Positions 963 through 15,725 are shown, counted from the first letter of the stretch. The stretch: DNA of 64,000 nt from Brevibacillus sp. SYP-B805 (GCF_011059135.1 NZ_JAALGD010000020.1:1-64000), one strand, 5' to 3'. The notes: generated by a model from the sequence alone, not told the origin. Numbers and translations are program-made.

Positions 963-1792
963 AGCGTGCAGATGGCGCTGGGGCGCTTGATGCGCAGCAC
1001 AACGCATTCATACACGCGGAAGACGCTGTTCATCTGTTCGTCCTCCATAAACGCAGTATTGAAATCTTCCGCGATGGCCAGATCGAGATTGTGGCGGCCG
1101 CACGACACCAGCACGCCGGCACGACCCTGGATGGCTGGCGTTTGGTAGACGCCCTCTGTCACCAGGCTGCGGATATGTTCGATTTCCAGGACGTTGGTTC
1201 CCTGATGCACACGATGGAGGAGCGAATACAGCTCCGGGGAGACCGCCAGTGCGTAAGGGCCGCTGTGCCCCATCTTCAGCAGCTTGTTGCGGGCTTCCAC
1301 GATATCGGCGAACGCATTGCCCGACTCCATCCAGTCGCTTTTCAGGTGGGTGAGCCTGCCTGTCACGTTCATCAAGCCGGGCAGCTCGAACGCCGGGGAA
1401 CCATTGAAGATGAGATCGTCCTCCAGGAGCGCGCACCCGGCGGCGGCATTGGCCGCCCCGCTGAAGTCGAGGGGAATGCCGAGCGTCCGCGCTTGCGAGA
1501 TGTCGCGCCAGTAAAGAACAAAATCGTTGTAGAGGATCGGAATCGTCAGGCTGACCCGCCGGCTGGGCTGGGTAAGTTCAAGGCCTTCGCCGCGCAGGTT
1601 TAACGCGCCGACACGCGATTCCTCATAGAGATCGTTGCTGATCGCCTGGATTCCTTCCCCCAACGGGCCGTAGATGTCAATGAACCGGCGGCCCACCAGC
1701 TGGCGCCGGGCCATCTCGACAACCGTTTCGTCAAGCTGGCGCCATTCGTCGGGGGAGAGGGGGGCGTCCGGAAATTTGTGATGCTTCTCCAT
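944..1792 (-). CDS. Family 1 encapsulin shell protein (linocin M18-like), 282 aa.
   Basis: Translation from the ATG at 1792 reads MEKHHKFPDAPLSPDEWRQLDETVVEMARRQLVGRRFIDIYGPLGEGIQAIS, the conserved family-1 encapsulin N-terminus. GGAGG lies 6 nt upstream (gaatGGAGGtatcatATG). The rest aligns with the HK97-fold shell protein through ...VFRVYECVVLRIKRP. Confidence 0.85.
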   Translation of the reverse strand: MEKHHKFPDAPLSPDEWRQLDETVVEMARRQLVGRRFIDIYGPLGEGIQAISNDLYEESRVGALNLRGEGLELTQPSRRVSLTIPILYNDFVLYWRDISQARTLGIPLDFSGAANAAAGCALLEDDLIFNGSPAFELPGLMNVTGRLTHLKSDWMESGNAFADIVEARNKLLKMGHSGPYALAVSPELYSLLHRVHQGTNVLEIEHIRSLVTEGVYQTPAIQGRAGVLVSCGRHNLDLAIAEDFNTAFMEDEQMNSVFRVYECVVLRIKRPSAICTLEEAEK

Positions 1793-2380
1793 ATGATACC
1801 TCCATTCCAAGCGTGATGAGCGTAGACTGCCAACGGCCAGCCCTTTTCCGGCGGGGAAACGGGGAGGAGGCTGCCTCCTTGCCGAAGCCAGCAGATGGTC
1901 CACCTGATGGATCGCGTGCCCTTCATCGTGATCCTCGACGGAAATGACGGCGCCGTGGTCGGACAAGCGTTCGCTCAGGGCTGCCATGATCTCCTTGACG
2001 GTCAGGTAATCGCTTTGGGTCTCTTCGCGCGTCCGGTTCAACCATTCTCGTTTCTCCGGATCGGTGAACTCATAGAGAGACAGCTCCAGATGCTCGCGAA
2101 AATTGTGCAGGCCGAAGCGTTCCAGATTGATGTCGGAAAGCAGGCGCGACAGCTCCCGGTCGCTCAGCTGCTCGCTGCCGGCAGTCAGGGAACGCAGATA
2201 GGGCAGCAGCTCGTTTAGCCGGCCGAGGCGCTGCTCTTCTTCTTCCATGATATGGTGGTAATAAAGACGCGTATGTTCATCCTGCGCATGGTCGACGATC
2301 GGCTGCAGCAGGGCGAGGAAACCGCCGATCGCTTCCCGGGTGCGGGTGAGGATGCTTTCAAGCTGCGAGAAGGCTTGCAA
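1793..2380 (-). CDS. Putative ferritin-like/IMEF-type encapsulin cargo protein with a C-terminal targeting peptide. It reads through in frame into the encapsulin ORF with no stop codon.
   Basis: The ORF starts at TTG 2380 (GGAGG 9 nt upstream). It is acidic and helical (DHAQDEHTRLYYHHIMEEEEQRL...EHLELSLYEF) and ends ...FPAGKGLAVGSLRSSRLEWRYH, which matches the encapsulin targeting-peptide consensus (G-x-L-x-V/I-G-S-L-R/K). The same frame continues into Met-1 of the encapsulin. I re-translated the junction by hand and found no stop. Confidence 0.6.
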
Positions 2381-2439
2381 CGGGACATACCTCCTTTACA
2401 TTGCTATTTTGTACCAAAAATCCAAAAGTTATTAGGGGA

Positions 2440-2475
2440 GAGTATTGTCAAGTTTAATTGGGAATGATAATATTT
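2440..2475 (+). promoter_or_regulatory. Candidate sigma-A promoter in the divergent intergenic region.
   Basis: TTGTCA (2446-2451), then a 17-nt spacer, then TAATAT. It faces the DUF2325-like gene. The -35 hexamer is palindromic with TTGACA on the minus strand. Confidence 0.35.
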
Positions 2476-2501
2476 ATCAATGAGAATGGTTTTCATTATT
2501 A
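2465..2501. promoter_or_regulatory. Two adjacent Fur/PerR-type 7-1-7 boxes.
   Basis: TGATAATATTTATCA (2465-2479) matches the TGATAATnATTATCA consensus at 14 of 15 positions. The next site, TGAGAATGGTTTTCATTATTA, matches the classical 19-21-bp Fur box at about 15 of 21. Both overlap the putative -10 between the cargo/encapsulin operon and the DUF2325 gene. Confidence 0.5.
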
Positions 2502-2558
2502 ATTGGCAACCTGAGAAGAAGTACATAAAACATCGGAACCGCGAAGGAGGAATATTTC

Positions 2559-2840
2559 ATGGCATCCATTTTGGTGGTTGGAGGAGACAGACTGGGCAAC
2601 ATCGTGGATTTGCTGCAAAACCAGGGGTTTCAGGAGGTGCATCATGTAAGCGGCCGGAAAAGCTCGCAGACCGGCATCAAGATTCCAAGCGGCGTGGATG
2701 TGATTTTGGTGCTGACCGATTTCATCAACCATAACCTGGCGAAAACCATCAAGCAGCAGGCGAAAGACAGGTGTCTGCCCATCCTGTTCTGCAAACGGTC
2801 GTGTGCCGCCATAGCCAAAGCCTTGTACCAGGTGGCCTGA
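2559..2840 (+). CDS. DUF2325-like small protein (93 aa).
   Basis: MASILVVGGDRLGNIVDLL...VILVLTDFINHNLAKTIKQQAK resembles the DUF2325 family of Firmicutes. RBS gaaggagg lies upstream of the ATG at 2559. Confidence 0.5.
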   Translation: MASILVVGGDRLGNIVDLLQNQGFQEVHHVSGRKSSQTGIKIPSGVDVILVLTDFINHNLAKTIKQQAKDRCLPILFCKRSCAAIAKALYQVA

Positions 2841-2900
2841 GCATACGGACGCTTGTACCCGGGCAGGATAAAAATATCCTGCATCAACCGGGAGGCCGAC

Positions 2901-3050
2901 ATGGAAAAGAAAAATCGTTTGGATGAATTGCCGATCGCCTCGCTGACCGAAGAGCAGCTCCGGCGCCTGAAACAGGCGGAGGACCAGCTCAATCAGGAGG
3001 GAAACGGCATCTATCTGATTGCGCTGCAAAAAGAAACCCCGTCGTCGTAA
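2901..3050 (+). CDS. Small hypothetical protein (~49 aa, MEKKNRLDELPIASLTEEQLRRLKQAEDQLNQEGNGIYLIALQKETPSS).
   Basis: Internal ATG of the 2853-3050 ORF, with GGGAGG nearby. I recognise no family. Confidence 0.3.
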   Translation: MEKKNRLDELPIASLTEEQLRRLKQAEDQLNQEGNGIYLIALQKETPSS

Positions 3051-3074
3051 CGGGGTCAGACTGATGACAAACGT

Positions 3075-3275
3075 ATGTTTGGGGTATGGCGTAATGGGGC
3101 CAGGCGAGCTCCTTTGACGACCGACGAAGCGGAGAAACAAAGACGCGGGGGCCACAGGGGGCGTGAGTCTCACATCCCTGAGACGCCCGGATGTTGAGCC
3201 CCCTGCCCGCGTCGCGTTTCGGAGCGGACAAAAGCCCACTTCCTCGCGGGTCGTCAAGAGAGCGAGCAGGAACCA
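3075..3275 (+). repeat. Full-length copy (B) of the ~190-nt structured repeat.
   Basis: atggcgtaatggggccaggcgagctcctttgacgaccg...gggcgtgagtctcacatccctgagacgccc...tgagccccctgcccgcgtcgcgtttcggagcgg...cgggtcgtcaagagagcgagcaggaaccat. The 5' segment gagctcctttgacgaccg is complementary to the 3' segment cgggtcgtcaagagagc, giving a long closing stem. There is an internal hairpin gggcg-tgag-tctca/tgagacgccc. Confidence 0.65.
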
Positions 3276-3367
3276 TTACCCAAGATCGACCGACCATATC
3301 TGCACATGGACCCCGTTGTCATAACGGGGTTTTTGCCGTTGAGCATCGCTTACGTAGGCGGGGTTAT

Positions 3368-3610
3368 TTAATCCAGAACCAGCCGGGCCAGATGCGGTTT
3401 CAGTGAATTAATGCCGATCGCAAAGCCCAGGCATTGGCTGGATTGAATGATAAAGGCGTTTAAGCCGACCACCTCCCCGTGCAAATTGATGAGCGGACCG
3501 CCGCTGTTGCCCGGATTGATCGCCGCATCGGTTTGAAAAATCTCTTCATAGTGGCGTTTGGCCACCTGCAGACGCCGGTTTTTGGCACTGATGATGCCGG
3601 CCGTGACCGG
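3368..3610 (-). pseudogene. C-terminal fragment of a trypsin-like (S1C/HtrA-type, no PDZ) serine protease gene, separated from its 5' half by the ~8.6 kb insertion.
   Basis: Minus-strand translation reads ...[58 protein letters not shown]..., which is the catalytic-Ser motif GNSGGPL. The frame is closed by TAG immediately upstream at about 3611. The N-terminal half (His/Asp region) is at 12195-12734. Confidence 0.75.
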
Positions 3611-3625
3611 ATTCTCACGTAAAGC

Positions 3626-5233
3626 CTAAAACGGCGGACGGAGATGCAGCTGACCGTTCAGGCGGAACGCGACCTCCAGGGTAAAGGGCGTGATGCGGCT
3701 GCCGGTCTGTTTTTCCCGGCGCGTGAGCCGCACCGATTCGATGAGGAAGCGCAGCAGCCTGTTTTTCTCCGCCTTGCCGCTCAAGGCGTGATAAACGGCG
3801 GGGAACGATTGGAGCCGCTCGGCGAGCCGTTCTTTTTGCCCATCATCCAGCTGTTGGGGAGACGGCTGTTTTTCTTTAAGGAGCATGTTCAGCCTGCCCA
3901 ATTGATCGGATATCTCTGACCGTCTCCGGATAAACTCCTCGGAAGTGTATACCCCGGTCTCAAAGCCGTGGTAGACGGCGGCCAGCTGTTTTTGCAGGGA
4001 TGTCCGCTGCCTGGACAGGGCGGCGGCGGATCGGTCGGCTGGGGAGGCTCGGCGCTGCTTTCCGGCCGCTGCATGGGCAGCGATCATGCGGCGGATCCGC
4101 TCCGGCGCGGGCGGCTCGACGCAGGCGAGAAAGGAGAGAAGCATCTCTTCCACGGCCCGGTACTTCACATAGGTGCAGCCTGCGGTTGTGCACCAGAGCA
4201 TCTCCTTTTCATAGACGCTCACGCTGCCGTCCTTTTTGCGATAGGTACAGCGGGAAGCCTGCCGCACCATCTTTTTGCCGCACAGTCCGCAGCGGATCAG
4301 GCCGGATAGTTCCGACGGGCTCTGGTCGAGAGGGATGGAGGGGCGGCGGCGCTGCCGTTTGTGATGCACCTGCTGGTACACGTCGGGAGAGATGATGGGG
4401 GGATGGGCATTTGGTACGATGATCCATTCGTCCGGCGGCCGTCTCGCGCGTTTCCGCTGTGTCTCAACCGTCGTGCTGTAGCGGATCTCCCCGATATATA
4501 CCGGATTGTGCAGGATTTTTTTAACCGCAGAGGCATTCCATTCCGGTAGCCCGGTGGGGGAAGGAATGCCGCTGTTGGTCAGGAGGGAGGCGATGGTCCG
4601 GCAGCCCAGCTCTCTCCCGTTCAGGCCCTCCAGGTACAGCCGGTAGATCAGCCGGACGACTTCCGCTTCCCCTGGCTCGATCACCAACCGCTGTGTCCTC
4701 GGATTGGTCCGGTAGCCGTAGGCGGGCCTGGAGCCCATGAAGCGTCCCGACATGGCGTAGGCGTATTTGGCCCCCTGCATCCGTTCGCGAATGGTTTCAA
4801 ATTCCTCGCGGGAGAGAAACATTTCGAAACGGATCTGCCGCAGATCGTTGACATTTTTGGGATCATACAGCCGGTAGGGGGTCAGGATGAAGATCCGTTT
4901 CCGACGGATCAGCTCGTAGACCCGTCCGTAATCCTGAAAATCGCCCCGCGTCAGCCGGGAGATTTCTTTCACGGCGATGCAGTCGTACCTGCCCTCCTCC
5001 AGATCAGCCAGTACCTGGCTGAAGACGGGCCGGGATTCGATCTTGTCGCCGCTGCCGATTTCCTCTGCGAGGTCGTAGGGAATGCCGTACTCGCCCAACA
5101 CGCGTTCCATGACGCTCCGCTGCATGGCGATGGTATCCTCGCCGGTCCGTTTTTCCCGTTCCGCATCTTCCCGGGAACGGCGGAGGTAGCTGACGATCCG
5201 CCTGATTCTTGCGCCTGCCGGCAGTTTGTTCAT
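3626..5233 (-). CDS. Large serine recombinase (535 aa; resolvase catalytic domain, recombinase domain, zinc ribbon).
   Basis: N-terminus ...IVSYLRRSREDAE...RPVFSQVLADLEEGRYDCIAVKEISRLTRG is resolvase-like. The central part PAYGYRTNPRTQRLVIEPGEAEVVRLIYRLYLEG...IPSPTG...WNASAVKKILHNPVYIG is recombinase-like. CGLCGKKM...C..GC is a zinc ribbon, followed by a C-terminal coiled coil. Confidence 0.85.
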   Translation of the reverse strand: MNKLPAGARIRRIVSYLRRSREDAEREKRTGEDTIAMQRSVMERVLGEYGIPYDLAEEIGSGDKIESRPVFSQVLADLEEGRYDCIAVKEISRLTRGDFQDYGRVYELIRRKRIFILTPYRLYDPKNVNDLRQIRFEMFLSREEFETIRERMQGAKYAYAMSGRFMGSRPAYGYRTNPRTQRLVIEPGEAEVVRLIYRLYLEGLNGRELGCRTIASLLTNSGIPSPTGLPEWNASAVKKILHNPVYIGEIRYSTTVETQRKRARRPPDEWIIVPNAHPPIISPDVYQQVHHKRQRRRPSIPLDQSPSELSGLIRCGLCGKKMVRQASRCTYRKKDGSVSVYEKEMLWCTTAGCTYVKYRAVEEMLLSFLACVEPPAPERIRRMIAAHAAAGKQRRASPADRSAAALSRQRTSLQKQLAAVYHGFETGVYTSEEFIRRRSEISDQLGRLNMLLKEKQPSPQQLDDGQKERLAERLQSFPAVYHALSGKAEKNRLLRFLIESVRLTRREKQTGSRITPFTLEVAFRLNGQLHLRPPF

Positions 5234-5318
5234 GGACTCACCCCGCTCGAACCAGGATAAGGAGAGCGCCCTTGTCAGGAGCGTCTCCTTGTTATCCAGT
5301 TTATTCGGCGATCCGTGA

Positions 5319-5795
5319 TTAATCCCAGATCAGGGGCCGCTCAAGCCCCGCCATCCGCATGTACTGCAGGAACTGGCCGGTATGCACCGCATCGTGGTAA
5401 GCGATGCGCAGCAGCATGTCACCCAGGGGGCGCTGATACCCGACATCGCTGCGGTCGATGATGCGCGTGTCCAGTTCGTCTTCATCCAGCGTCCGTATAT
5501 AGGCAAGGAACGCCTCAAACAGCGGTGTGCCCAGCGCGATTTCCCGTTCGACCGAGACGATCGGCTCCTCCTTGTAAGGAGCATCAGGGATCGCCGCATG
5601 GGCCGAACCGTTATGGAGAAGGATCTGATGGTACTCGAAGGTGGCCGTACACACATGACGGATCATTTCGCCAAAAGAGTAGGCTTCCTTGTCCGGCCTC
5701 CAGCCCAGCCACTCATCGGGCAGGGCTCGCCACGCAAGGATGGATCGGCGTCTGGTTTCTTGAAAATGAAGAATGATGGCATCGATGGCATTCAT
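5319..5795 (-). CDS. DinB/YfiT-like (DinB_2) metal-dependent hydrolase family protein (158 aa).
   Basis: ATG at 5795 with GAAGGAGG upstream. MNAIDAIILHFQETRRRSILAWRALPDEW...HDAVHTGQFLQYMRMAGL is typical DinB_2. The longer six-frame ORF (to 6407) is a GC-driven extension overlapping arsR on the other strand. Confidence 0.7.
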   Translation of the reverse strand: MNAIDAIILHFQETRRRSILAWRALPDEWLGWRPDKEAYSFGEMIRHVCTATFEYHQILLHNGSAHAAIPDAPYKEEPIVSVEREIALGTPLFEAFLAYIRTLDEDELDTRIIDRSDVGYQRPLGDMLLRIAYHDAVHTGQFLQYMRMAGLERPLIWD

Positions 5796-5861
5796 GGAAT
5801 AACCTCCTTCGCTCTGAATATCCCCATTGTACTGCATGAATGATTCGGTTATGATCGAAGT

Positions 5862-6563
5862 ATGAATGCATATCCTGATTTTGCCTATGTTGCCGGATTG
5901 ATCGGGGATCCCACCCGGGCGGCGATGCTGGACAGCCTTTTGGACGGCCGCGCTTTGCCGGCGAGTGAACTGGCTTATCTGGCCCGGGTATCGCCCCAGA
6001 CGGCCAGCGCCCATCTTGCCAAATTGGTCGAAGGGAAGCTGCTCGCGGTGGAGACGCACGGCCGTCACCGCTATTACCGTCTGGCCGGCGCGCATGTCGC
6101 CCAGGTGCTTGAGGCGCTGACCACCCTGGCGCCGCCCGTGCAGGTTCGGTCGCTCCGGCAGTCCGATCGGCTGAAGGAAGTGCGCCATGCCCGCACCTGC
6201 TATGACCATCTGGCCGGCCAGCTGGGGGTGGAGCTGACCCGGACGTTCGTGACGCGCGGATTCCTGCGGGAAGCGGATCGGGAGTACCGGATCACCGAGG
6301 TAGGGAAGCGCTGGTTTTCCGACTTTGGCATCGATGTGGAAGCGATCCGCCAAAAACGGCGCTCGCTTGCCCGTCCATGCCTGGACTGGAGCGAACGGCG
6401 CCACCATTTGGCGGGAGCATTGGGAGCCGCGCTTGCCAGCCGGCTGTTTGAGCTCGGCTGGATCGTTCGCGTCCCGTCAAGCCGCGCCGTGCGCATCACG
6501 GAGAAAGGGAGGGAACATTTGGCCCACCAGTTGGGCATCGAAACAGCAGGCCGGTTGACATAA
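5862..6563 (+). CDS. ArsR-family winged-helix transcriptional regulator with a C-terminal extension (233 aa).
   Basis: GLIGDPTRAAMLDSLLDGRALPASELAYLARVSPQTASAHLAKLVEGKLLAVETHGRHRYYRL is an ArsR/SmtB HTH. It is divergent from the DinB-like gene. Confidence 0.75.
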   Translation: MNAYPDFAYVAGLIGDPTRAAMLDSLLDGRALPASELAYLARVSPQTASAHLAKLVEGKLLAVETHGRHRYYRLAGAHVAQVLEALTTLAPPVQVRSLRQSDRLKEVRHARTCYDHLAGQLGVELTRTFVTRGFLREADREYRITEVGKRWFSDFGIDVEAIRQKRRSLARPCLDWSERRHHLAGALGAALASRLFELGWIVRVPSSRAVRITEKGREHLAHQLGIETAGRLT

Positions 6564-6847
6564 GACAATCCGCCGCTCACATACCCTTTTGGCGAGGGGG
6601 GAGCGAGGTGGAGCAGACGGCGCTGCTTGTCGTGAGAGGATCGTATGGGGAGATTCGCGTCACCCAGCCCGAAGCGCCTGCGCGCGAGTCTGAACTGGAG
6701 GAGCTGTATGCCTTTTTGATCGAAGCGCTGCTTCGGCAAGCGGACGGGGAACCGTCCGGCTAGCGTCTGCCGGCCAACTGCCCGGCAGGCTTTTTTTGTC
6801 AGAGAAGAAAGCTTAGTTCCTTAAAGTGATAAAGTGACAGGGAAAGG

Positions 6848-6896
6848 CTGGGGGCCCCGCCCGGCGCAGCGATAGCTCAAGCCGGGTGGGTTTTTT
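6848..6896. repeat. Short member of the GC-rich palindromic repeat family (R5).
   Basis: gggggccccgcccggcgcagcgatagctcaagccgggtgggtttttt, preceded by the family-typical AT-rich flank ttaaagtgataaagtgacag. Confidence 0.55.
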
Positions 6897-6985
6897 ATGC
6901 CCGCAGCGCATAATTACCGTTGTTCGATGGACTATATAACTGTCGATCTCTTCATCGTGGAGAAAAAGGCAGAAGGAGGTGAGCG

Positions 6986-7195
6986 GTGATGACGGTCGCC
7001 ATGCAGGTAAAGCAGACGCTGGCCAGCCTGAAAAGCGCCCAGGCCAACCTGGAAATGTTTGCGCTGGAAACGCAGAACAAGCAGGCGAAAGAGATGTACA
7101 CAAAGGCGGCACAAACGGCGAAAACCATCTGCGACACGCTGGAGAAGCGCGTTACGGAATTGGAGTTTGAGGAGCCGCAGTACAAAGGGTTTTGA
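6986..7195 (+). CDS. DUF1657 protein (69 aa), first gene of the spoVA2mob-type operon.
   Basis: MMTVAMQVKQTLASLKSAQANLEMFALETQNKQAKEMYTKAAQ... matches the DUF1657 family. GAAGGAGG lies upstream. Confidence 0.8.
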   Translation: MMTVAMQVKQTLASLKSAQANLEMFALETQNKQAKEMYTKAAQTAKTICDTLEKRVTELEFEEPQYKGF

Positions 7196-7227
7196 TTGCA
7201 GTGCGGGTATGTTAAGGAGGTTCATCC

Positions 7228-8088
7228 ATGCCGGGTTGGCTCACGATCATCATCACGTCCTTTGTCTCTCTGGCCTATCTCTTTACCCTGGCGAGGCTGA
7301 TCGGGAAACGGCAGATGTCCCAGCTGTCCTTCGTCGATTTCATCGTCGCGATGACGATCGGCTCGATTGCCGCTGAAATGGCCACCAATATCGACGGTTC
7401 CATCATCCATGGCATGATCGCCATGACCATGTTCGGCCTGTTTCCCATTGTCTCCGAATGGCTGGCAATGAAAAGCAAGGTGATGCGCAATTTTTTTGAA
7501 GGGAGCGCTACCGTTCTGATCAAGGACGGCAAGATCCTGGAAGACAATCTGAAGCAGGAGCGGCTGAATCTGGAAGACTTGATGGATATGCTGCGCAACA
7601 AGAACGTGTTCAAAGCGGCCGATGTGGAATTTGCCGTCATGGAACCGAGCGGCAAGCTGAGCGTGCTGTTGAAAGCGGAAAACCAGCCGTTGACGGCCAA
7701 ACAGTTGGGGCTGCAGGTCGCCCCGGCGGAAGAGCCGCAAAACGTGATCATGGACGGTCAGATCATGGATGAACCGCTGGCGACCATCGGCTTGAACCGC
7801 GCATGGCTGAAGGCGGAGCTGGAGAAAGCGGGCGTTGCGCTGGAAAATGTGTTTTTGGGCCAGGTGGACAAGGGCGGCCAGCTGTATCTCGATCTGTATG
7901 ACGACAAGATTCAGGTGGCCCAGCCGACGGCGATGAAGCTCACCTTTGCCACCCTGAAAAAATGTCAGGCGGATCTGGAGCTGTACGCGCTGGCCACCCA
8001 AAGCGAAAAGATGAAGAAGACCTATGCGGTGGAAGCCAAACGGTTGAAACAGCTGATTGAAAAAATGGAGCCGCATTTGATGCGGTAA
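7228..8088 (+). CDS. DUF421 (YetF-like membrane domain) fused to a C-terminal DUF1657 (the '2Duf' protein of spoVA2mob operons), 286 aa.
   Basis: The N-terminal TM region has the YetF-like core ...LLKAENQPLTAKQLGL.... The C-terminal 60 aa (MKLTFATLKKCQADLELYALATQSEKMKKTYAVEAKRL) repeats the DUF1657 motif. RBS AAGGAGG. Confidence 0.8.
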   Translation: MPGWLTIIITSFVSLAYLFTLARLIGKRQMSQLSFVDFIVAMTIGSIAAEMATNIDGSIIHGMIAMTMFGLFPIVSEWLAMKSKVMRNFFEGSATVLIKDGKILEDNLKQERLNLEDLMDMLRNKNVFKAADVEFAVMEPSGKLSVLLKAENQPLTAKQLGLQVAPAEEPQNVIMDGQIMDEPLATIGLNRAWLKAELEKAGVALENVFLGQVDKGGQLYLDLYDDKIQVAQPTAMKLTFATLKKCQADLELYALATQSEKMKKTYAVEAKRLKQLIEKMEPHLMR

Positions 8089-8102
8089 GGAGGGTGTGAG
8101 GG

Positions 8103-8579
8103 ATGGCTGACCACAAAAAGAAAAGGTTGACGCCTGTCCAGCTGCAGTACCAGGAGCTGGCCAAGCGGCATGAACCGCCCCGTCCGCTCGCCCGCAACTT
8201 CCTCCGCGCGTTTCTCGTCGGGGGGGTCATCTGCATCATTGGGCAGGCCATTCAAGAGATCTTTATCCGCTTCTTCCACTTTACGGAAAAAACGGCAAGC
8301 AATCCGACAGTGGCCGTCCTGATTCTACTTTCGGTGCTCCTGACCGGCTTTGGGGTTTATGACCGGATTGCCCAGTGGGCGGGAGCGGGAACAAGCGTCC
8401 CTGTCACCGGCTTTGCCAATTCGATCGCCTCCGCGGCCATCGAGCATCGAAGCGAAGGATACGTGTTGGGCGTGGGGAGCAACATGTTTAAACTGGCCGG
8501 GTCGGTCATTGTGTTCGGCGTTTTTTCCGCATTCGTCATCGGGGTGATCAAGGCGATCTGGAAAATGGGGTGGCAGTAG
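8103..8579 (+). CDS. spoVAC: Stage V sporulation protein AC (SpoVAC), 158 aa.
   Basis: ...FLRAFLVGGVICIIGQAI...IAQWAGAGTSVPVTGFANSIASAAIEHRSEGYVLGVG is characteristic of SpoVAC. RBS GGAGGG. Confidence 0.9.
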   Translation: MADHKKKRLTPVQLQYQELAKRHEPPRPLARNFLRAFLVGGVICIIGQAIQEIFIRFFHFTEKTASNPTVAVLILLSVLLTGFGVYDRIAQWAGAGTSVPVTGFANSIASAAIEHRSEGYVLGVGSNMFKLAGSVIVFGVFSAFVIGVIKAIWKMGWQ

Positions 8580-9584
8580 ATGCTGACAGGCCATCAAACC
8601 TGGGTATTTGCAAACAAACCGGTCATCGTCGGGTCGTCGGCCATCGGGGGCCCTTTTGAAGCAAAAGGACCGCTTGCCGACGATTTCGATACGACGCACG
8701 GCGACCTGATGCTGGGGCAGGACAGTTGGGAAAAGGCGGAGAAGGTGCTGTTCGAGGAAGCGAGCGACAAGGCGATCGAAAAAGCCGGATTGACCAAGGA
8801 GAAGATCCGTTTCCTGATCGGCGGCGATCTGCTGAACCAGCTCATATCCGCCAGCTTTGCCGCCCGCACGCTGGCCATCCCTTATCTGGGGGTGTTTGGC
8901 GCGTGTTCGACCGCCATGGAAAGCTTGGCGCTCGCCGCCCAGCTGGTCGATTCCCAGGCGGCCGATTATGTGTTGGCCGTCACGGGCAGCCACAACGGCG
9001 CGGCGGAAAAGCAGTACCGGTATCCGACCGAGTACGGTTCGCAAAAGCCCCCCACGGCCCAGTGGACGGTGACGGGGGCGGGGGCTGCCGTGGTGGCAAG
9101 AGAGGGCAGCGGCCCGCGGATCACGTCCGCCACGATCGGACGGGTCGTGGACATGGGGCTGTCCGATCCGTTCAACATGGGGGCGGCGATGGCACCGGCG
9201 GCGCTCAGCACCATTGAGGCTCACTTTCGCGACAGGCAGCTCGACTTCTACCATTACGATCTGATCGTGACCGGGGATCTCGCGCGGGTAGGCCACGCCA
9301 TCCTGTCCGAACTGCTGCCCAAGCACAATATCAAGATTCCGCTGGAGCGCTATGTGGATTGCGGCATGCTGATCTACGGGGACAACCCTGCCGTTTGGGC
9401 CGGGGGAAGCGGCTGCGGCTGCTGTGCCACCGTCACCTACGGCCATCTGCTGAACCGGATGCGGGAAGGCAAATGGCACCGCATGCTGGTGGTGGCGACC
9501 GGGGCGCTGCTGTCGCCCATGTCGTATCAGCAGGGCGAAAGCATTCCCTGCATCGCGCACGCCGTCTCCATCGAAAACGAGTAA
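8580..9584 (+). CDS. spoVAD: Stage V sporulation protein AD (SpoVAD), 334 aa.
   Basis: The thiolase-like fold with GDLLNQLI...GVFGACST...ERYVDCGMLIY matches SpoVAD. Its start abuts the spoVAC stop. Confidence 0.9.
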   Translation: MLTGHQTWVFANKPVIVGSSAIGGPFEAKGPLADDFDTTHGDLMLGQDSWEKAEKVLFEEASDKAIEKAGLTKEKIRFLIGGDLLNQLISASFAARTLAIPYLGVFGACSTAMESLALAAQLVDSQAADYVLAVTGSHNGAAEKQYRYPTEYGSQKPPTAQWTVTGAGAAVVAREGSGPRITSATIGRVVDMGLSDPFNMGAAMAPAALSTIEAHFRDRQLDFYHYDLIVTGDLARVGHAILSELLPKHNIKIPLERYVDCGMLIYGDNPAVWAGGSGCGCCATVTYGHLLNRMREGKWHRMLVVATGALLSPMSYQQGESIPCIAHAVSIENE

Positions 9585-9597
9585 GGGAGGACGAAAG

Positions 9598-9948
9598 ATG
9601 ACGTTTCTCTGGGCGTTTCTCGTCGGGGGAAGCATCTGTTTGCTGGGGCAGTTTTTGATGGATGTGGTAAGGCTTACCCCTGCGCATACCATGTCTGCAC
9701 TGGTCGTGGCCGGGGCGATTCTGGACGGTCTCGGCCTGTACGAGCCGCTGATCGATTTCGCCGGAGCGGGGGCGACCGTACCGATTACCAGCTTCGGCAA
9801 CGCCTTGGTGCACGGGGCGATGGCCGAGGCGGAGCGGCATGGTCTGGTCGGCGTCATCACCGGCATTTTCGAAGTGACCAGCGCGGGGATCTCGGCGGCG
9901 ATCGTCTTTGGCTTTTTTGCCTCGCTGGTGTTTCGTCCCAAAGGATAA
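9598..9948 (+). CDS. spoVAEB: Stage V sporulation protein AEb (SpoVAEb), 116 aa.
   Basis: MTFLWAFLVGGSICLLGQFLMD...FAGAGATVPITSFGNALVHGA. RBS AGGGAGG. Confidence 0.85.
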   Translation: MTFLWAFLVGGSICLLGQFLMDVVRLTPAHTMSALVVAGAILDGLGLYEPLIDFAGAGATVPITSFGNALVHGAMAEAERHGLVGVITGIFEVTSAGISAAIVFGFFASLVFRPKG

Positions 9949-10031
9949 TGGCAGGGAACGTGGCAACACGGCCGTGACCGAGTTTTCCAAACCAAGCGGA
10001 GAACCGCCTGCATCCATAGGGCTGCATGGGG

Positions 10032-11465
10032 CTAGTGAAACTCAATGCGCGTGATGGCAGGAGGGCGGCTTTCCGCCTGTATGTTTTTCACCAGGATGGT
10101 GATGAGCTGTTTTTTTTCCCGAATGGTGGCAAACGGCCACACCCGCGTCCAGTCGGTGAGGAGGGGAACAAGCTCTCCGCCGCGCGGGGAACGGCCGGCC
10201 TGCGCCGCCAACAGGGAGCGCAAAGCCGCTTCCTGCTCGCCGGCCTCCTCCATCCGCTCCCGAAAACGTTCCAGCGTGAGGGCCCCTTCCGCATAGGCCT
10301 GTTCCCACCGCGCCACCATCTGCTGCAGTTTTTCCAACTGTCCCTCCAGCAGGCGGCCAGGAAGGGAGAGCGTGCGCGTTTGCAGCGCTGCTTCGGCCAG
10401 GTCGGCTGCGCTGGCAACCCGCGTCAACCATGGCAGAAACAGCGCTTCCAGGCGGTCTTCCCGGATGGAGGCGGACGGACAGCTTTTTCGTTTCCGGTTT
10501 TGGCAGACGTAATACCGGTTGGTGTAGCGCTTTCCCGTCTGGTTGCGCGTGCGGATCGTTTTGCCGTACATGGGGGCCTCGCAATCGGCGCAGAAGAGGA
10601 CGCCGGAAAAGGGAAAATCGGAAGCCAGCGCGCGGGGATGCTGCCGGGTCCGCGCCTGCTGCAGCCGTTGGACGAGAAGAAACGTCTCTTTGTCGATGAT
10701 GGCGTCGTGCGTCCCCTCCCGGATGATCCAGCTGTCCGGGCTGTTTCTTTTTTGGCCGCCCTCGGCGTAATTCCAGCGCAGGGCGCCATAATAGACCGGA
10801 TTTTTCAGCATATGGGAGAGGGTCGTTTGATTCCACGGGCCGCCCGTCCGGCTCCGGAAGCCAAGGCGGTTCAGCTCGTCGGCAATGCCGCTGATCCCGA
10901 CCCCCGCGAGATATCTGGCGAAAATCAGGCGGACGAGATCCGCTTCCATCGGCTCCACATGCAGGACGCCATCCTGCAGCCGATACCCATAGGGGGGCGG
11001 GCCGCCCGGCCGTTTCTGCTCGCGCGCCATCTGCCCCATGCCCAGTTTGACGCGTTCCGCCAGATTTTCCCGCTCCCACTGTGCCAGCGCCGCCACCAGG
11101 GTGATAAAGAGGCGGCCGATCGCCGTTGTGGTGTCGTACACTTCCGTGCAACTGCGAAAGGAGACGCCATGCCGCTCCCATTCTTCCAGCAGGGAATAGA
11201 GGTCGAGCACGGACCGTGTCAGCCGATCCAGCCGATATACCAGGACGACATCGACCGCCCCCCTGCGTACATCGCGCAGCAGGCGCTGCAAGGCGGGACG
11301 GTCCGTATTTTTGGCGCTGTATCCCTCATCGATGTAGCAATCGTGAATGTGCATCCCCTGCGAACAGGCGAACCAGGTCAGCTTCTCCCGCTGGGCGGAG
11401 ATGGAGAAGCCCTCTTTGGCCTGTTCCTCGGTGCTCACGCGGATATAGAGCGCGGCCCTGTTCAC
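10032..11465 (-). CDS. Large serine recombinase (477 aa).
   Basis: GTG start with GAGGTGA upstream. (M)NRAALYIRVSTEEQAKEGFSISAQREKL... is the catalytic Ser motif. It has a recombinase domain, zinc ribbon (CADCEAPM...C) and coiled coil. Confidence 0.9.
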   Translation of the reverse strand: MNRAALYIRVSTEEQAKEGFSISAQREKLTWFACSQGMHIHDCYIDEGYSAKNTDRPALQRLLRDVRRGAVDVVLVYRLDRLTRSVLDLYSLLEEWERHGVSFRSCTEVYDTTTAIGRLFITLVAALAQWERENLAERVKLGMGQMAREQKRPGGPPPYGYRLQDGVLHVEPMEADLVRLIFARYLAGVGISGIADELNRLGFRSRTGGPWNQTTLSHMLKNPVYYGALRWNYAEGGQKRNSPDSWIIREGTHDAIIDKETFLLVQRLQQARTRQHPRALASDFPFSGVLFCADCEAPMYGKTIRTRNQTGKRYTNRYYVCQNRKRKSCPSASIREDRLEALFLPWLTRVASAADLAEAALQTRTLSLPGRLLEGQLEKLQQMVARWEQAYAEGALTLERFRERMEEAGEQEAALRSLLAAQAGRSPRGGELVPLLTDWTRVWPFATIREKKQLITILVKNIQAESRPPAITRIEFH

Positions 11466-11516
11466 GGCATCATCACCTCACGATTCGCGGATTATCCTGC
11501 TAGATCGGAAAGTAAG

Positions 11517-11610
11517 GCTGGGGCCCCCGCCGACAACAGCAAGGGCCACACTCGGCACAGCGATAGCTATCGCCGAGTGGGTGGAGACTCAGCTTAAGTC
11601 GGCGGGGTTA
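11517..11610. repeat. Nested GC-rich palindromic repeat (R2).
   Basis: ggggcccccgccgacaacagcaagggccacactcggcacagcgatagctatcgccgagtgggtgga...gtcggcggggtta. Confidence 0.7.
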
Positions 11611-11715
11611 GTTAATTTGATCATACAGGGATGGGACGCCGCATATGCCTTTATCGGGCACAAAAAAGCCTCATCCTCCTGTCGATCGATCGGACAAGGA
11701 AGGATCAGGCGTCCG

Positions 11716-12045
11716 TTACATCCATTTATGGCTCCATTCTTCAATGGATTCTATCACAGGCCGGAGATCCGTACCTTTCTGCGTCAGCTGGTATTCGATG
11801 CGCACCGGCGTTTCCGGGTATACTTTCCGTTCGATGATGCCTTCTTCTTCCAGTTCCTTCAACCGCTCTGACAGCATCTTGTCGCTCATCTGCGGGACGA
11901 TTTCCCTGACATCCTTGAAACGGACGGGACCTCCCAACAGGACGCGGATGATCAGCCCGGTCCAGCGTTTGCCCAGTATGCTGATCGCCGCTTCGTATTT
12001 CGGACACATTTGCGATTTCGGATTCGATTGGTCCATGCGGCACAC
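11716..12045 (-). CDS. HxlR-family (MarR-like) transcriptional regulator (~105 aa).
   Basis: CPKYEAAISILGKRWTGLIIRVLLGGPVRFKDVREIVPQMSDKMLSERLKELEEEGIIERKVYPETPVRIEYQLTQKG is the HxlR signature. Confidence 0.8.
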   Translation of the reverse strand: MCRMDQSNPKSQMCPKYEAAISILGKRWTGLIIRVLLGGPVRFKDVREIVPQMSDKMLSERLKELEEEGIIERKVYPETPVRIEYQLTQKGTDLRPVIESIEEWSHKWM

Positions 12046-12194
12046 TCCTGTACTTCTGTTCTACCTCTTTACTGTACCATAATAACTTGACAAAAGTAAG
12101 TGGCGGATTCCAGGCATTCCTGCTGACGGGCTTCCCGCACGGCAGGCGCGGCCGCCACGCGGGGGAAACATATGGCTTGCAGCCCTATGCCGCA

Positions 12195-12734
12195 AGTCGG
12201 CGAACCGATGCTTACTACCCATTCGCCCACTTTCGTTTCAGCGGAATCGCCGAGTGGGAGCGGCTTCAGCAGGGTGTTGGCGTTTATTTTGAGTACCGCA
12301 TAATCCCGCGTACGATCGCTTGCGATCCGTTCCGCCTCGAAGACCCGGCCGTTGTAAAGCTTGACGAGGGTCGATTTCGATTTGCCGATGACATGTTCGC
12401 TCGTCAAAATGTAACCGCGCGGATGAAAGATAAAGCCTGAGCCAAAACTGCGCTCCGTTGTATATGTTTCAATCGAAGGCTGAGTCACGAGAAAATCGCG
12501 CAGGAACTGGTCGAGCGGCCCGCCGTTGGACTTGTCTTCCGACACGATGGAGACGACCCCCTCTTTCACCTGTTCGACCAGAGGGACGAAAAAATTGAAC
12601 GGATGCAAACTGCTGCTCACCGGATAATTTTTCCTTACATATGCGGACCATTTTCGATGTTTCATCCACAGATCCTCCCACAGCAGATAGGTATGTATCA
12701 TTCTATGGCTGAGGGGGGAGGGAGGGACGCCCAA
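12195..12734 (-). pseudogene. N-terminal portion of the interrupted trypsin-like serine protease gene.
   Basis: ...GSGFIFHPRGYILTSEHVIG...DYAVLKINANTLLKPLPLGDSAETKVGEWVVSIGSP contains the catalytic His and Asp regions. After SIGSP the frame runs into unrelated sequence, the element junction, and stops at 12069. Confidence 0.7.
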
Positions 12735-12891
12735 TTATTGTCAGGCGGTCATGTGTAACCATGGCTATCATTGATACAGAAATAGTATTGGTATAATAAA
12801 ATTTTTCATTTTATAATAAAAATGAACAGGAGGCTATTTTTTTTGTACTTGTTGAGTTTGAGCTTGCAGAGGCTAGTCTGGAGGATGCTGT

Positions 12892-13428
12892 ATGGACGTG
12901 AAAACAATCATTTTGGGCTTTCTGAACGAGGGGGAAATGAGCGGTTACGACCTCAAACAGGCGTTTTCCAACTGCATCGGGTTTTTCTACGATGCAAGCT
13001 TTGGTGCGATATATCCTTCCCTGCGCAAGCTGGAAGAGGACGGCTGTGTCACGAAGCGGGAGGTCATTCAATCGGGCAAACCGAATAAAATCCTGTATCG
13101 GATCACGGAAAAGGGAAGGGAACTGTTCCATCAGGAAATGATGAGCCCGATCCTGCCGCCGGTGTTGCGCTCCGACATGCTGGTCAAGTTCTTTTTTGCC
13201 GGCGGGCGTTCGGAAGAGGAGCAGCGCGAATTGTTGAACAACGGTCTCCAGATGCAGAAAAACCTGCTGAGCAAAAGCAAAAAGGCTTATGTTCAAATGG
13301 CCGATTCGTTTAATGACTTTCAAAAATTTTGCTGGCAGTATTCCCTGCACCATTTGGAGTCGACCATCCATTTCCTGGAGAAGAATGCGCCGGAATTGCT
13401 GAAGCAGACGAAAACACTGAACGTGTAA
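12892..13428 (+). CDS. PadR-family transcriptional regulator (178 aa).
   Basis: ILGFLNEGEMSGYDLKQAF...GAIYPSLRKLEEDGCV...KILYRITEKGRELF is the PadR wHTH. Confidence 0.8.
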   Translation: MDVKTIILGFLNEGEMSGYDLKQAFSNCIGFFYDASFGAIYPSLRKLEEDGCVTKREVIQSGKPNKILYRITEKGRELFHQEMMSPILPPVLRSDMLVKFFFAGGRSEEEQRELLNNGLQMQKNLLSKSKKAYVQMADSFNDFQKFCWQYSLHHLESTIHFLEKNAPELLKQTKTLNV

Positions 13429-13545
13429 CCGGATACCGCGTCCCCGTGTGGAACCAAAAAAGCGAAATTCCCCCGCACATTTCGCTTTTTGTTTGGCAGA
13501 TCGGAAATTTAAAGCTGTTTAAAGTGATAAAGTGACGAAGAAAGT

Positions 13546-13594
13546 TTGGGGGCCCCCGCCGACACCAGCGTTAGCCAAAGTCGGCGGGGTTATT
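13546..13594. repeat. Minimal GC-rich palindromic repeat (R3). It probably acts as a bidirectional terminator between convergent genes.
   Basis: gggggcccccgccgacaccagcgttagccaaagtcggcggggttatttt, preceded by the flank aaagtgataaagtgacgaagaaagttt. Confidence 0.6.
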
Positions 13595-14702
13595 TTAGAT
13601 TTTCGGGATTGAGGCACTCCAGTTCCGGAACGACGAACCGGCCGTCCTTGCGAATCAGGCGGTCATCAAAATAGATCTCTCCTCCGCCCCACTCCGGCCG
13701 CTGGATGCAGACGAGATCCCAGTGGACGGCCGACTGGTTGCCGTTGGGCGCTTCATCATAGCACTGGCCGGGAGTGAAATGAAAGCTGCCGTCGATCTTT
13801 TCGTCAAACAGAATGTCCTTCATCGGATGCTGGATGTGCGGGTTGACGCCGATCGCGAATTCGCCCACATACCGCGCTCCTTCGTCCGTATCGAAGATCC
13901 GGTTGATCCGCTCCGTATCGTTGGCGACCGCGTCCACGATCCTGCCGTCCCGGAAGGTCAGCTTGACCTGATCAAACGTGAAGCCCTGATAAGGGGAGGG
14001 CGTATTGTACGTAATGACGCCGTTGACGGAATCCTTGACAGGCGCTGTAAACACCTCACCGTCCGGAATGTTGTACTCGCCGGCGCATTTGATGGCCGGA
14101 ATCCCTTTAATGGAAAAGGTAAGATCGGTGCCCGGACCGGTAATCCGCACCTTGTCCGTCTTCTCCATCAGCGCCACGAGGTTCTCCATGGCTTTGGCCA
14201 TTTTGCCGTAGTCAAGCGTGCATACCTTGAAATAGAAATCTTCAAAGGCCTCTGTGCTCATATTGGCCAACTGGGCCATGGAGGCGTTGGGATAACGCAG
14301 GACGACCCAGCGGGTGTGGGGCACGCGCACATCCTGAACGGGGCGCTGCAGCAGGCTGGTATACAGCTTCATTTTATCTCCGGGTACATCGGCATACTCG
14401 TTGATGTTGTCGCCGCTGCGGATTCCGATGTAACAATCCATCTTTTTCATAAACGCGACTTCCGCTTCACGCATGACCGCCAACTGCTCCTCATTGGTTT
14501 GCAGCATGAGTTCGCGCAGAATGGACGGCTGCACCAACTGCACATAAGGATGTCCGCCAGCGGCGTATACCTGCCGGATGACGGCTTTCACGAGTTCATT
14601 GACATCGCCAATCGCGTAGATGAGGACGTTTTCCCCCTTTTGCACGCGGGTGGAGTAGTTGACCAACACATCGGCAAGCTGGTCCAGACGGGGATCTCTC
14701 AT
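13590..14702 (-). CDS. Aminopeptidase of the M29 (AmpS/PepS, thermophilic metalloprotease) family.
   Basis: ATG at 14702 with AAGAGAGG upstream. MRDPRLDQLADVLVNYSTRVQKGENVLI...EGARYVGEFAIGVNP...DGSFHFTPGQ is typical of the M29 family. Confidence 0.75.
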   Translation of the reverse strand: MRDPRLDQLADVLVNYSTRVQKGENVLIYAIGDVNELVKAVIRQVYAAGGHPYVQLVQPSILRELMLQTNEEQLAVMREAEVAFMKKMDCYIGIRSGDNINEYADVPGDKMKLYTSLLQRPVQDVRVPHTRWVVLRYPNASMAQLANMSTEAFEDFYFKVCTLDYGKMAKAMENLVALMEKTDKVRITGPGTDLTFSIKGIPAIKCAGEYNIPDGEVFTAPVKDSVNGVITYNTPSPYQGFTFDQVKLTFRDGRIVDAVANDTERINRIFDTDEGARYVGEFAIGVNPHIQHPMKDILFDEKIDGSFHFTPGQCYDEAPNGNQSAVHWDLVCIQRPEWGGGEIYFDDRLIRKDGRFVVPELECLNPENLK

Positions 14703-14860
14703 GCATGTACCTCTCTTTCGATGATGTTCGAAGTTATTGTACACAAAATCAAAAAGAACAGCCACCCTAGCCGGAGGGTAGCTGTGGTGGCTGCACGCGC
14801 AATGCAGGATTCGGTTATACATCTATACGCGCGATCGGCGCGATTGTGACTAGAATGCGA

Positions 14861-14953
14861 TCAGTTTTCTGCTGCCCCAACGATTACCAGCAGGATAAAC
14901 AGTACGAGAATCAAGGCGAAATCGTCAAAATCCCCATTGAAAATGCTGCTCAC
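14861..14953 (-). CDS. YjcZ-family small sporulation peptide (30 aa), tandem copy 1.
   Basis: GTG start with AAGGAGG 8 nt upstream. (M)SSIFNGDFDDFALILVLFILLVIVGAAEN has the hydrophobic LVLFILLVIVGA core typical of YjcZ-like peptides. Confidence 0.5.
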   Translation of the reverse strand: MSSIFNGDFDDFALILVLFILLVIVGAAEN

Positions 14954-15056
14954 GTTATCGTCCTCCTTTTATTTGTTCAAGCTGGATTGCACATGGTGAA
15001 TGTACCGGATGTATCTGGCCCCGCCAGGAGAAGCGCACACTCCCGGCAGGAAATCG

Positions 15057-15149
15057 TCAATTTTCCGCTGCGCCCACGATGACGAGTAGAATGAACAGAA
15101 CGAGCACCAGTACAAAACCATCGAAATCGCCGTTAAAAATGCTGCTCAT
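15057..15149 (-). CDS. YjcZ-family small sporulation peptide (30 aa), tandem copy 2.
   Basis: ATG with GGAGGAGG upstream. MSSIFNGDFDGFVLVLVLFILLVIVGAAEN is a paralogue of copy 1, ~80% identical at nucleotide level. Confidence 0.5.
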   Translation of the reverse strand: MSSIFNGDFDGFVLVLVLFILLVIVGAAEN

Positions 15150-15315
15150 GAATAACATCCTCCTCCGTTTGTCAGTCTCTTGTGCTTACATCCATAAGAT
15201 ATGGGGGCGGGCAAAGAGACGTAACGGCAGATGCCTATTTTTGACGACAATGTTTATTATTCAGAAAACATGGAAAAGCTGGAGGAAAGGAAAGAACGCA
15301 TAGCGAAAGGATGGC

Positions 15316-15555
15316 ATGAACATGCGCAGAGCAATCTCCGTACCACTGCACGAGGAGCTGTCGATCACGATCAGCGTCGGGGAGGATTTCAAGGCGATTG
15401 TGTGGAAAGCCCAATATGACATGGATTTCAATACCGAGTGTCTGTTTTGCTTTTCCGAAAAGATCACCGGTTACCGGGTTGAAGACGAGTTCGGACAGGC
15501 CGGCAAGGTCGCGGTTTGTCCCCATTGTGAAAAAGTAAACGCCATTTATGCATAA
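15316..15555 (+). CDS. Small hypothetical protein with a CxxC...CxxC zinc-ribbon-like motif (79 aa).
   Basis: ECLFCFSEK...VCPHCEKV. Weak RBS (aaagga). Confidence 0.3.
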   Translation: MNMRRAISVPLHEELSITISVGEDFKAIVWKAQYDMDFNTECLFCFSEKITGYRVEDEFGQAGKVAVCPHCEKVNAIYA

Positions 15556-15725
15556 GGACGGATGGACCACGAGGATCATCCGCTGGGAAGGGAGCACGGC
15601 CAAAGGCCTGCTCTTTTTTTCTGCCAGTTCATCCACCATGTACCACCCATTCATCGGCAGGAGTTTCTCTTGTTTTCACGAATTTTAGCAGGGTTGAAAT
15701 GCGGGTGAAATGGTGAGGTGAATTC

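Follow-up and report, generated by a model that had tools for sequence, protein, structure and literature searches.

The stretch of Brevibacillus sp. SYP-B805 DNA analysed here (64 kb; hereafter the window, to whose full length all positions refer) carries a five-gene spoVA2 operon at 6986-9948 on the + strand. Taken as a whole, our analysis makes it probable that this operon is the cargo of a large-serine-recombinase element, named E2, which lies in a split gene for an S1C (trypsin-like) protease beside another element, E1. E2 appears to be a non-conjugative, non-phage integrative element, inserted by its own recombinase, RecL, at a GTCAC core in the protease gene. E1, apparently unrelated and about 2.2 kb long (recombinase RecR and an HxlR-type regulator), would have entered the same gene 28 bp upstream. 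Loci and contigs fetched for comparison are designated by L-numbers.

All five open reading frames (ORFs) of the operon are present on the + strand, and profile hidden Markov model (HMM) searches assign them to a DUF1657 gene (6986-7195; PF07870, E=2.4e-21; probable start ATG at 6989, behind a GGAGGTG ribosome-binding site), 2Duf (7228-8088; transmembrane YetF_N, DUF421 with E=2e-42 and a C-terminal DUF1657 with E=1.8e-14), spoVAC (8103-8579; TIGR02838, 205 bits versus a cut-off of 164), spoVAD (8580-9584; PF07451, E=2.4e-155; NF009069, 596 bits versus a cut-off of 442) and spoVAEb (9598-9948; TIGR02839, 171 bits versus a cut-off of 131). The E-values rule out chance, and the domain assignments proposed in a preliminary description of this DNA (DUF1657, DUF421, SpoVAC, SpoVAD, SpoVAEb) thus hold, well above the curated cut-offs. 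The genes are tightly packed, with 32, 14, 0 and 13 nt between consecutive members and spoVAD directly abutting spoVAC, so the uniform gaps of 14-32 nt described previously are not borne out; GGAGG-type ribosome-binding sites do precede four of the five genes.

None of spoVAA, spoVAB, spoVAEa and spoVAF adjoins the operon, the neighbouring genes encoding DinB, ArsR, recombinases and HxlR, and no second copy of spoVAC/AD/AEb was found within the 64-kb window. With a DUF1657 gene, a DUF421+DUF1657 membrane protein, SpoVAC, SpoVAD and SpoVAEb closely spaced on one strand, the operon is of the pentacistronic spoVA2 type and, as the preliminary description had it, does not represent the housekeeping spoVA locus.

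The protease gene is located on the minus strand and is divided into three pieces (12665-12198, 9996-9969 and 3609-3368). The N-terminal part (12198-12665; Trypsin_2) ends with ...EWVVSIGSP and shares 66% identity with residues 1-153 of the intact protease of Brevibacillus sp. H7. The middle piece, comprising the 28 nt between E1 and E2 (9969-9996, minus strand; LGLENSVTA), reads CTTGGTTTGGAAAACTCGGTCACGGCCG and matches the intact H7 gene, and the C-terminal part (3368-3609, minus strand; ...GIISAKNRR...GNSGGPL...LVLD*), which includes the E2 core, is 85% identical to H7 residues 157-237. When E1 and E2 were deleted in silico, the sequence across the junctions was identical to the intact 238-aa protease of H7, and in frame. 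The intact H7 gene has the same PadR/M29 ... DUF2325/IMEF-encapsulin synteny around it and so represents the empty site. Both E1 and E2 must excise for the reading frame to be restored. The genes flanking the elements in the window are ordinary chromosomal genes: IMEF cargo, encapsulin, DUF2325, PadR, M29 peptidase, brxC, aroA, acuABC, a class A penicillin-binding protein and tyrS.

E2 extends from about 3598 to 9980 (6371 bp, or 6.37 kb, core to core) and contains RecL, a DinB gene, an ArsR-type regulator, a 51-aa ORF and the spoVA2 operon. Its left junction (3598-3609, minus strand) was placed by comparison with the empty site and with variants carrying other cargo; it holds the core CGGTCACGGCCG in common with 9969-9980, and the crossover probably falls inside GTCAC. 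This right-hand core, given in + coordinates, is the 3' portion of the middle piece on the protease strand. The P arm ACGTGAGAATCC (3610-3625, minus strand) adjoins the left core, and the two arms form an imperfect inverted repeat (ACGTGAGAATCCGG / CCGTGTTGCCACGT). The reconstructed attachment (att) sites are ACGTGAGAATCCGGTCACGGCCGTGTTGCCACGT for attP2 and GGAAAACTCGGTCACGGCCGGCATCATCAG for attB2. RecL (3626-5233, minus strand; 535 aa) has Resolvase, Recombinase and Zn_ribbon_recom domains, and its stop codon is only 16 nt from the core. RecL and 2Duf each match an NCBI protein of SYP-B805 with 100% identity. E2 therefore displays what characterizes a large-serine-recombinase element, i.e. 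a three-domain recombinase at one end, attL and attR with a short core, and an empty attB, in this case in H7. No transposase is present at the operon; the flanking genes encode the two large serine recombinases, with their att junctions.

E1 (about 9997-12206, minus strand) is bounded by the attR1 core GGTTCTCCG (9997-10005) and the attL1 core GGTTCGCCG (12198-12206). The two junctions share the core GGTTC(G/T)CCG, and the P and P' arms both contain GCAGCCCTATG in inverted orientation. A pattern search for the second arm with up to 3 mismatches matched the query alone; the arm was found by reading past the RecR stop codon, which lies 26 nt from the core. RecR (10032-11465, minus strand; 477 aa; Resolvase E=2e-42, Recombinase and Zn ribbon) shares 51% identity with its counterparts at this site in B. 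brevis and B. fluminis, 70% with that of L076 and 27% with RecL; judged by these identities, RecR and RecL are members of different recombinase families. Its conserved companion is an HxlR-type regulator (11716-12045, minus strand; PF01638, E=2.5e-32), which has counterparts of 72-85% identity in B. brevis, L076 and B. migulae. A conserved GCATA-N17-nTAnGAT box upstream of RecR has a sporulation-sigma-like look, its compartment not being assignable.

Comparison with related genomes revealed that the site is occupied in various ways. Brevibacillus sp. H7 has an intact gene with neither element. An element of the E1 kind splits the protease gene in B. brevis (YheCD, HxlR and recombinase, with no E2), B. 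fluminis and B. migulae. In B. fluminis, E2 contains kdpFABCD and MpsC with a RecL orthologue, and in B. dissolubilis, which has no E1, it carries a Tad/Flp pilus operon with a RecL orthologue. B. migulae and contig L087 have an E1 and an E2 composed of RecL, ArsR, a small ORF and the five-gene spoVA2. One metagenome yielded two contigs, whose linkage is not shown: L076, with an E1 and spoVAEb-AD-AC-2Duf, and L084, with ArsR-DinB-RecL. L091 contains a near-identical copy of the window E2 and a fragment of an E1 recombinase at the contig end.

spoVA2 cargo is found beside a RecL orthologue in B. migulae, L087, L088 and L091. In B. fluminis, B. dissolubilis, B. migulae and metagenome contigs, the C-terminal part of the protease gene has a RecL orthologue (52-69% identity) next to it. 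The P' arm adjoining the GTCAC core is kept across all E2 variants, and the P arms are also conserved. The E2 family is one whose cargo is swappable among Brevibacillus species (spoVA2, kdp, Tad pilus). In B. dissolubilis (L085, 11733-12044), the C-terminal protease fragment was observed on the strand opposite to the N-terminal part and RecL, which are co-oriented with it in all other genomes; this reversal suggests a recombinase-mediated inversion of a short segment.

Traces of recombination were found in the metagenome contig L088 (Joint Genome Institute, JGI, sample 3300018875, contig Ga0193608_1000125), in which two tandem E2-spoVA2 units are followed by two tandem E1 units (RecR-HxlR-YheCD) at 122-18080. 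Identity between the two E2 units is 100% (5903 bp), and that between the two E1 units 99.97% (3077 bp). At the E2-E2 junction the RecL-side P arm is joined at GTCAC to the spoVAEb-side P' arm, which is attP2, and the E1-E1 junction is attP1 (P arm, core and P' arm). Such exact attP junctions indicate that the recombinases act on these sites. L088 could represent a genuine tandem array, or reads from circular forms could have been merged in its assembly; either way, molecules with the attP junctions existed in the sample. From the polymorphic bases at the junctions, the crossover of E2 can be located to GTCACA and that of E1 to CGGTTC.

The preliminary description equated the gene order and composition of the operon exactly with spoVA2mob, the operon carried by Tn1546, and this has to be corrected. 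Tn1546 spoVA2mob consists of seven genes, i.e. DUF1657, YhcN/YlaJ, spoVAC, spoVAD, spoVAEb, DUF1657 and 2Duf (PMC5133452), an order that we saw directly on the B. velezensis plasmid pDMB05-2, beside a Tn3-family transposase and a resolvase. The window operon, in contrast, has five genes, lacks YhcN/YlaJ, has a single free DUF1657 gene and carries 2Duf in second rather than last position. The vehicles are also different: Tn1546 is a Tn3-family transposon (TnpA/TnpR) and E2 a site-specific large-serine-recombinase element, in agreement with the earlier view that the operon is on a mobile element of another class. The two systems are alike in the spoVAC-AD-AEb core, the DUF1657 and 2Duf proteins, the carriage on a mobile element and a forespore-type promoter upstream, which in the window operon is a candidate. 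Hosts of Tn1546 spoVA2mob include B. subtilis B4146/B4067, B. amyloliquefaciens DSM7 and B. licheniformis (Berendsen et al. 2016; PMC5133452).

A five-gene ‘pentacistronic spoVA2’ was described for Clostridium sporogenes PA3679 and some group I C. botulinum (PMC5376575). Its composition and order are identical to those of the window operon, with a YcaP/DUF421+DUF1657 membrane protein in second position. In PA3679, it was linked to exceptional heat resistance, and its horizontal acquisition was suspected (PMC5376575). PA3679 differs, however, in belonging to another phylum-level lineage (Clostridia), and its operon adjoins the xdh operon in a conserved neighbourhood, for which no mobile element or recombinase was reported (PMC5376575).

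The 2Duf protein was used to fetch 75 loci, and in this set nine Brevibacillus and Alicyclobacillus genomes carry the same five-gene order on the chromosome (loci sharing the order: L001, L003-L009, L012, L086, L087 and L091). Geobacillus, Anoxybacillus and Fictibacillus have a Tn1546-like order, and in Neobacillus and Priestia the arrangement is DUF1657-DUF1657-2Duf with the spoVA genes absent. The native spoVA2 loci of Brevibacillus, Effusibacillus and Alicyclobacillus resemble the window operon in gene order and in a sigma-G-like motif, but have no flanking serine recombinases (none within 10 kb in the Brevibacillus and Alicyclobacillus genomes) and are not inside a split gene. The proteins of the window operon are 52-73% identical to those of Tn1546, 63-88% to those of native Brevibacillus operons and 78-90% to those of the B. 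migulae copy. The element-borne copies group together in a 2Duf tree, as one clade within the Brevibacillus/Effusibacillus group, and Tn1546 is the most distant branch. The higher identity to native Brevibacillus operons and the position in the tree point to independent capture of a Brevibacillaceae-type operon and not to transfer from Tn1546, contrary to the earlier suggestion that the module moves between vector types. As far as these sequence comparisons reach, the data fit a single capture of such an operon by an E2 element in one sub-lineage.

2Duf was also encountered on plasmids. On the Paenibacillus urinalis plasmid NZ_CP118103.1 (L090; 62 kb), 2Duf and a divergent DUF1657 gene occur at 5583-6861 without spoVA genes, and this 2Duf adjoins a mer operon and a tyrosine recombinase gene. 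Further homologues are present on plasmids of Priestia megaterium and B. paranthracis. The occurrence of 2Duf on plasmids without spoVA genes indicates that it travels independently of spoVAC/AD/AEb.

The split protease gene does not look like a dead gene. All its fragments retain open frames and the GNSGGP active-site motif is kept. The ratio of nonsynonymous to synonymous substitution rates (dN/dS) of the protease halves was computed between genome pairs both carrying insertions. It is 0.13 for the N-terminal and 0.12 for the C-terminal part between the window and L076/L084 (dS 0.66-0.9), and 0.11 and 0.05, respectively, between B. migulae and L087 (dS 0.4-0.7), values that reflect purifying selection on both halves. 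Values of 0.03-0.12 were noted for the C-terminal part, and about 0.1 for the N-terminal part. In the protein database, roughly every second Brevibacillus protease cluster consists of an N-terminal fragment stopping at the insertion site, so the split protease is common in the genus. Homologues of the protease were seen in spore-forming Bacillales families only.

A strongly conserved box upstream of the protease gene (12666-12790, minus strand; TGGGC(G/T)TCCC ... CCATAnnATGAnnCATA(C/T)C, in its longer form TGGGCKTCCC...CCATAnnATGAnnCATAyC) was found in all seven genomes compared. It fits none of sigma-E, sigma-K, sigma-F, sigma-G and sigma-H in spacing or key bases. Since no sigma factor can be assigned to this box, we do not claim the protease as a sporulation gene. 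A PadR gene is transcribed divergently from the same region.

The operon is preceded by two hairpins (6765-6891, + strand), an intrinsic terminator at 6765-6790 with a T run and a hairpin resembling repetitive extragenic palindromic (REP) sequences at 6852-6891, also with a T run. Downstream of them lies a candidate sigma-G-like promoter (6908-6936, + strand), composed of GCATA (6908-6912), N17 and GACTATA (6930-6936). The motif G[ACT]AT[AG]-N17/18-NANNNTA precedes 11 of the 13 five-gene loci, compared with its presence in 2% of random windows; its counterparts are GCATA-N18-CACATTA in Alicyclobacillus and GAATA-N17-CAAAATA in Tn1546. The sigma-G consensus that Haldenwang is said to have given in 1995 is GHATR-17/18-CATXXTA. 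A scan for sigma-70 promoters found no convincing promoter for the operon. The candidate for the forespore promoter whose search the preliminary description had recommended is a sigma-G-like motif with an imperfect -10 region. By analogy with B. subtilis and B. cereus, the operon is probably transcribed in the forespore from this promoter.

The REP-like hairpin was noted in its own right: an approximately 40-nt hairpin with the conserved loop CAGCGATAGCT is found at 6852-6891, at 11543-11582 (upstream of RecR) and in an H7 intergenic region (L078, 7079-7167). It has no match in Rfam.

In B. subtilis, SpoVAC, SpoVAD and SpoVAEb form a dipicolinic acid channel, and the largest contribution to wet-heat and chemical resistance comes from 2Duf (PMC5133452, PMC10126465). 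The copy number of spoVA2mob can vary, and heat resistance correlates with more copies (PMC5133452, PMC10126465). The window operon would accordingly provide an extra SpoVAC/SpoVAD/SpoVAEb dipicolinate channel together with an inner-membrane 2Duf and a DUF1657 protein. As such proteins are the determinants of increased wet-heat resistance in other species, high heat resistance of SYP-B805 spores may be predicted by extrapolation.

In our reading of the operon as E2 cargo, the gene content, the limits of the elements, the empty site, the other kinds of cargo and the attP junctions are observed, and forespore expression, an influence on heat resistance and a regulated excision are deduced. This reading has to be weighed against several alternatives. 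The operon could be Tn1546 spoVA2mob itself, moved to a different vector in a recent event of horizontal transfer. The domain families are indeed shared (DUF1657, 2Duf, SpoVAC, SpoVAD and SpoVAEb), and 2Duf homologues reside on plasmids of Priestia, Paenibacillus and the B. cereus group as well as on the Tn1546-bearing B. velezensis plasmid; however, the seven genes of Tn1546, their different order with YhcN/YlaJ, the lower protein identity and the most distant branch of the 2Duf tree make this origin extremely improbable. We also give very little credence to the operon being a native chromosomal spoVA2 locus with nothing mobile about it and unrelated recombinases as chance neighbours. Such a locus would be in keeping with the chromosomal five-gene order of at least nine Brevibacillus/Alicyclobacillus genomes, in which a recombinase is absent within 10 kb, with the absence of a second SYP-B805 2Duf from the best 120 matches, which reach down to 63% identity, where native Brevibacillus copies fall, and with the equal divergence of elements and flanks between the window and L076. 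It is at odds with the precise att junctions that bound the operon inside the protease ORF, with the attP junctions in L088, and with the RecL-bounded slot, which holds kdp or Tad elsewhere and is empty in H7 and B. brevis. Across the compared genomes, it is the RecL/att2 boundaries that delimit the unit of presence or absence.

Another view is that both elements are fixed, decaying remnants, with the protease permanently inactive, the recombinases inactive and the operon immobile. In metagenome scans, the window lineage was represented by neither a circular form (attP2) nor an empty site (attB2), the divergence between the window and L076 resembles vertical inheritance, and directionality factors are known at the candidate level only. 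We nevertheless find this view unlikely, as neither recombinase ORF is truncated or disrupted and each encodes all three domains, and as open protease frames with GNSGGP and dN/dS values of 0.05-0.13 are unexpected for a dead gene at dS 0.4-0.9. The E2 reading itself has several points to its disadvantage, the result of the metagenome scans being one of them. DNA identity between the window and L076 is 76-80% inside the elements and 76% in the flanks; given this equal divergence, the insertions in the window/L076 lineage look old and vertically inherited, not recently transferred. The tandem arrangement of L088 could be an assembly artefact, though reads spanning the attP junctions would still be required. 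The -10 sequence of the window promoter, GACTATA, departs at two positions from the sigma-G consensus, and because of this imperfection forespore expression is something that we infer. Finally, as most Brevibacillus have a native copy of the operon, its carriage alone need not give unusual heat resistance, and the phenotype of SYP-B805 depends on the total copy number.

The persistence of purifying selection in a gene split long ago implies its periodic reconstitution, as in the pairs skin/sigK, SP-beta/spsM and gin/gerE (PMC5595907), and suggests that the excision of E1 and E2 from the protease gene may be reversible. In common with gin in gerE of B. cereus ATCC 10987, skin (sigK) and SP-beta (spsM) (PMC5595907, PMC4191935, PMC5499854), serine-recombinase att sites lie within a coding sequence, whose ORF is restored by precise excision. 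E1 and E2 also resemble gin in being small and non-phage and in having more than one recombinase gene (girA, girB and girC in gin); gin excision needs the small protein GirX (6.5 kDa), and the window has the conserved 51-aa ORF. Unlike in these three systems, the target here is an S1C protease and not a proven sporulation gene, the cargo itself is a forespore sporulation operon, and two independent elements occupy two adjacent sites. Tandem integrative-element arrays and ‘regulated gene integrity’ (Mageeney et al. 2020, PMC7192596) are similar in that neighbouring elements share a target gene, which is inactivated by integration and restorable by excision. They differ from the present case, in which the recombinases are different, the different cores are 28 bp apart and the regenerated attB is not reused.

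Developmental excision of the elements is put forward here as a hypothesis and not as a finding, and we regard it as a minor possibility. In its full form, which seems doubtful, E1 and E2 would excise in the mother cell, rebuilding a late-sporulation protease, and the forespore would keep both elements and express the spoVA2 operon of E2 (a skin/gin-like scheme). If this were true, E2 would be the first intervening element to carry a forespore sporulation/heat-resistance module as its cargo, two serine recombinases would gate one gene from sites 28 bp apart, and tandem amplification, as in L088, would be able to tune the spoVA2 dosage.

The remaining genes of E2 are as follows. The DinB-superfamily gene (5319-5795, minus strand; DinB_2, E=3.7e-17) is also present in L084 and L091, and the B. 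migulae version of the element is without it. The ArsR/SmtB-type helix-turn-helix regulator (5862-6563, + strand; 233 aa; HTH_20, E=4e-11; NF033788) shares a divergent regulatory region with the DinB-RecL pair, is directly divergent from RecL in B. migulae, and is kept in all spoVA2-carrying E2 elements (73% identity in B. migulae and L087). Homologues of the acidic 51-aa ORF (6608-6763, + strand) occupy the equivalent position in L084, L086 and L087, with 37-59% identity. The ORF is a candidate for either a recombination directionality factor or a spore protein; along with the HxlR and ArsR regulators, it belongs to the candidate directionality factors. A conserved GnATR-N17-CATAyCy motif, located at 6558-6587 and at orthologous positions in L086, L087 and L091, lies partly within the end of the ArsR gene, is directed into the 51-aa ORF and resembles a promoter for a sporulation sigma factor. 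The GC content of the elements (0.595-0.60) shows a weak contrast with that of the flanks (0.546-0.559) and was not used as evidence.

In several species, the E1-type elements were found to contain a YheC/YheD-type ATP-grasp gene (B. brevis L080/L081, 10497-11621; L086, 14719-15822). In B. subtilis, the family carries a spore-coat-associated annotation; if this applies here, the E1 cargo may also be sporulation-related.

Elsewhere in the window, the genes for an IMEF ferritin-like cargo protein and an encapsulin shell protein (Linocin_M18) form one 478-aa ORF without an intervening stop codon (944-2380, minus strand; ...GLAVGSLRSSRLEWRYHMEKHH...). The two genes are separate in Brevibacillus sp. 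H7 (...GLTVGSLKHR*) and in all other relatives. The single ORF may be a natural cargo-shell fusion, a case of read-through or a sequencing error. A search against Rfam returned nothing in or near the elements; the sole match in the window is an ordinary T-box leader (RF00230, 110 bits) at 30812-31021 on the + strand, directly upstream of tyrS.

A search of the full-text literature returned nothing relevant on spoVA2 with a serine recombinase or on intervening elements of Brevibacillus. What is novel here is the vehicle and its setting: a serine-recombinase family with swappable cargo, two recombinase families 28 bp apart in one protease gene, and one element family that carries, and sometimes duplicates, the spoVA2 heat-resistance module. 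Cargo exchange, regulated gene integrity and new integrase/att pairs could all be studied at this locus, which its adjacent att sites and swappable cargo make a natural test bed. The purifying selection acting on the split protease raises the question of programmed excision, which is answerable by experiment.

Among the genetic determinants of extreme wet-heat resistance in spores, spoVA2/2Duf is the one best documented, and its sole defined vehicle until now has been Tn1546 of the B. subtilis group. Independent capture of the operon by a serine-recombinase element, present in several Brevibacillus lineages, indicates that the heat-resistance module has become mobile more than once. Surveillance limited to Tn1546 would overlook this second route of mobilization.

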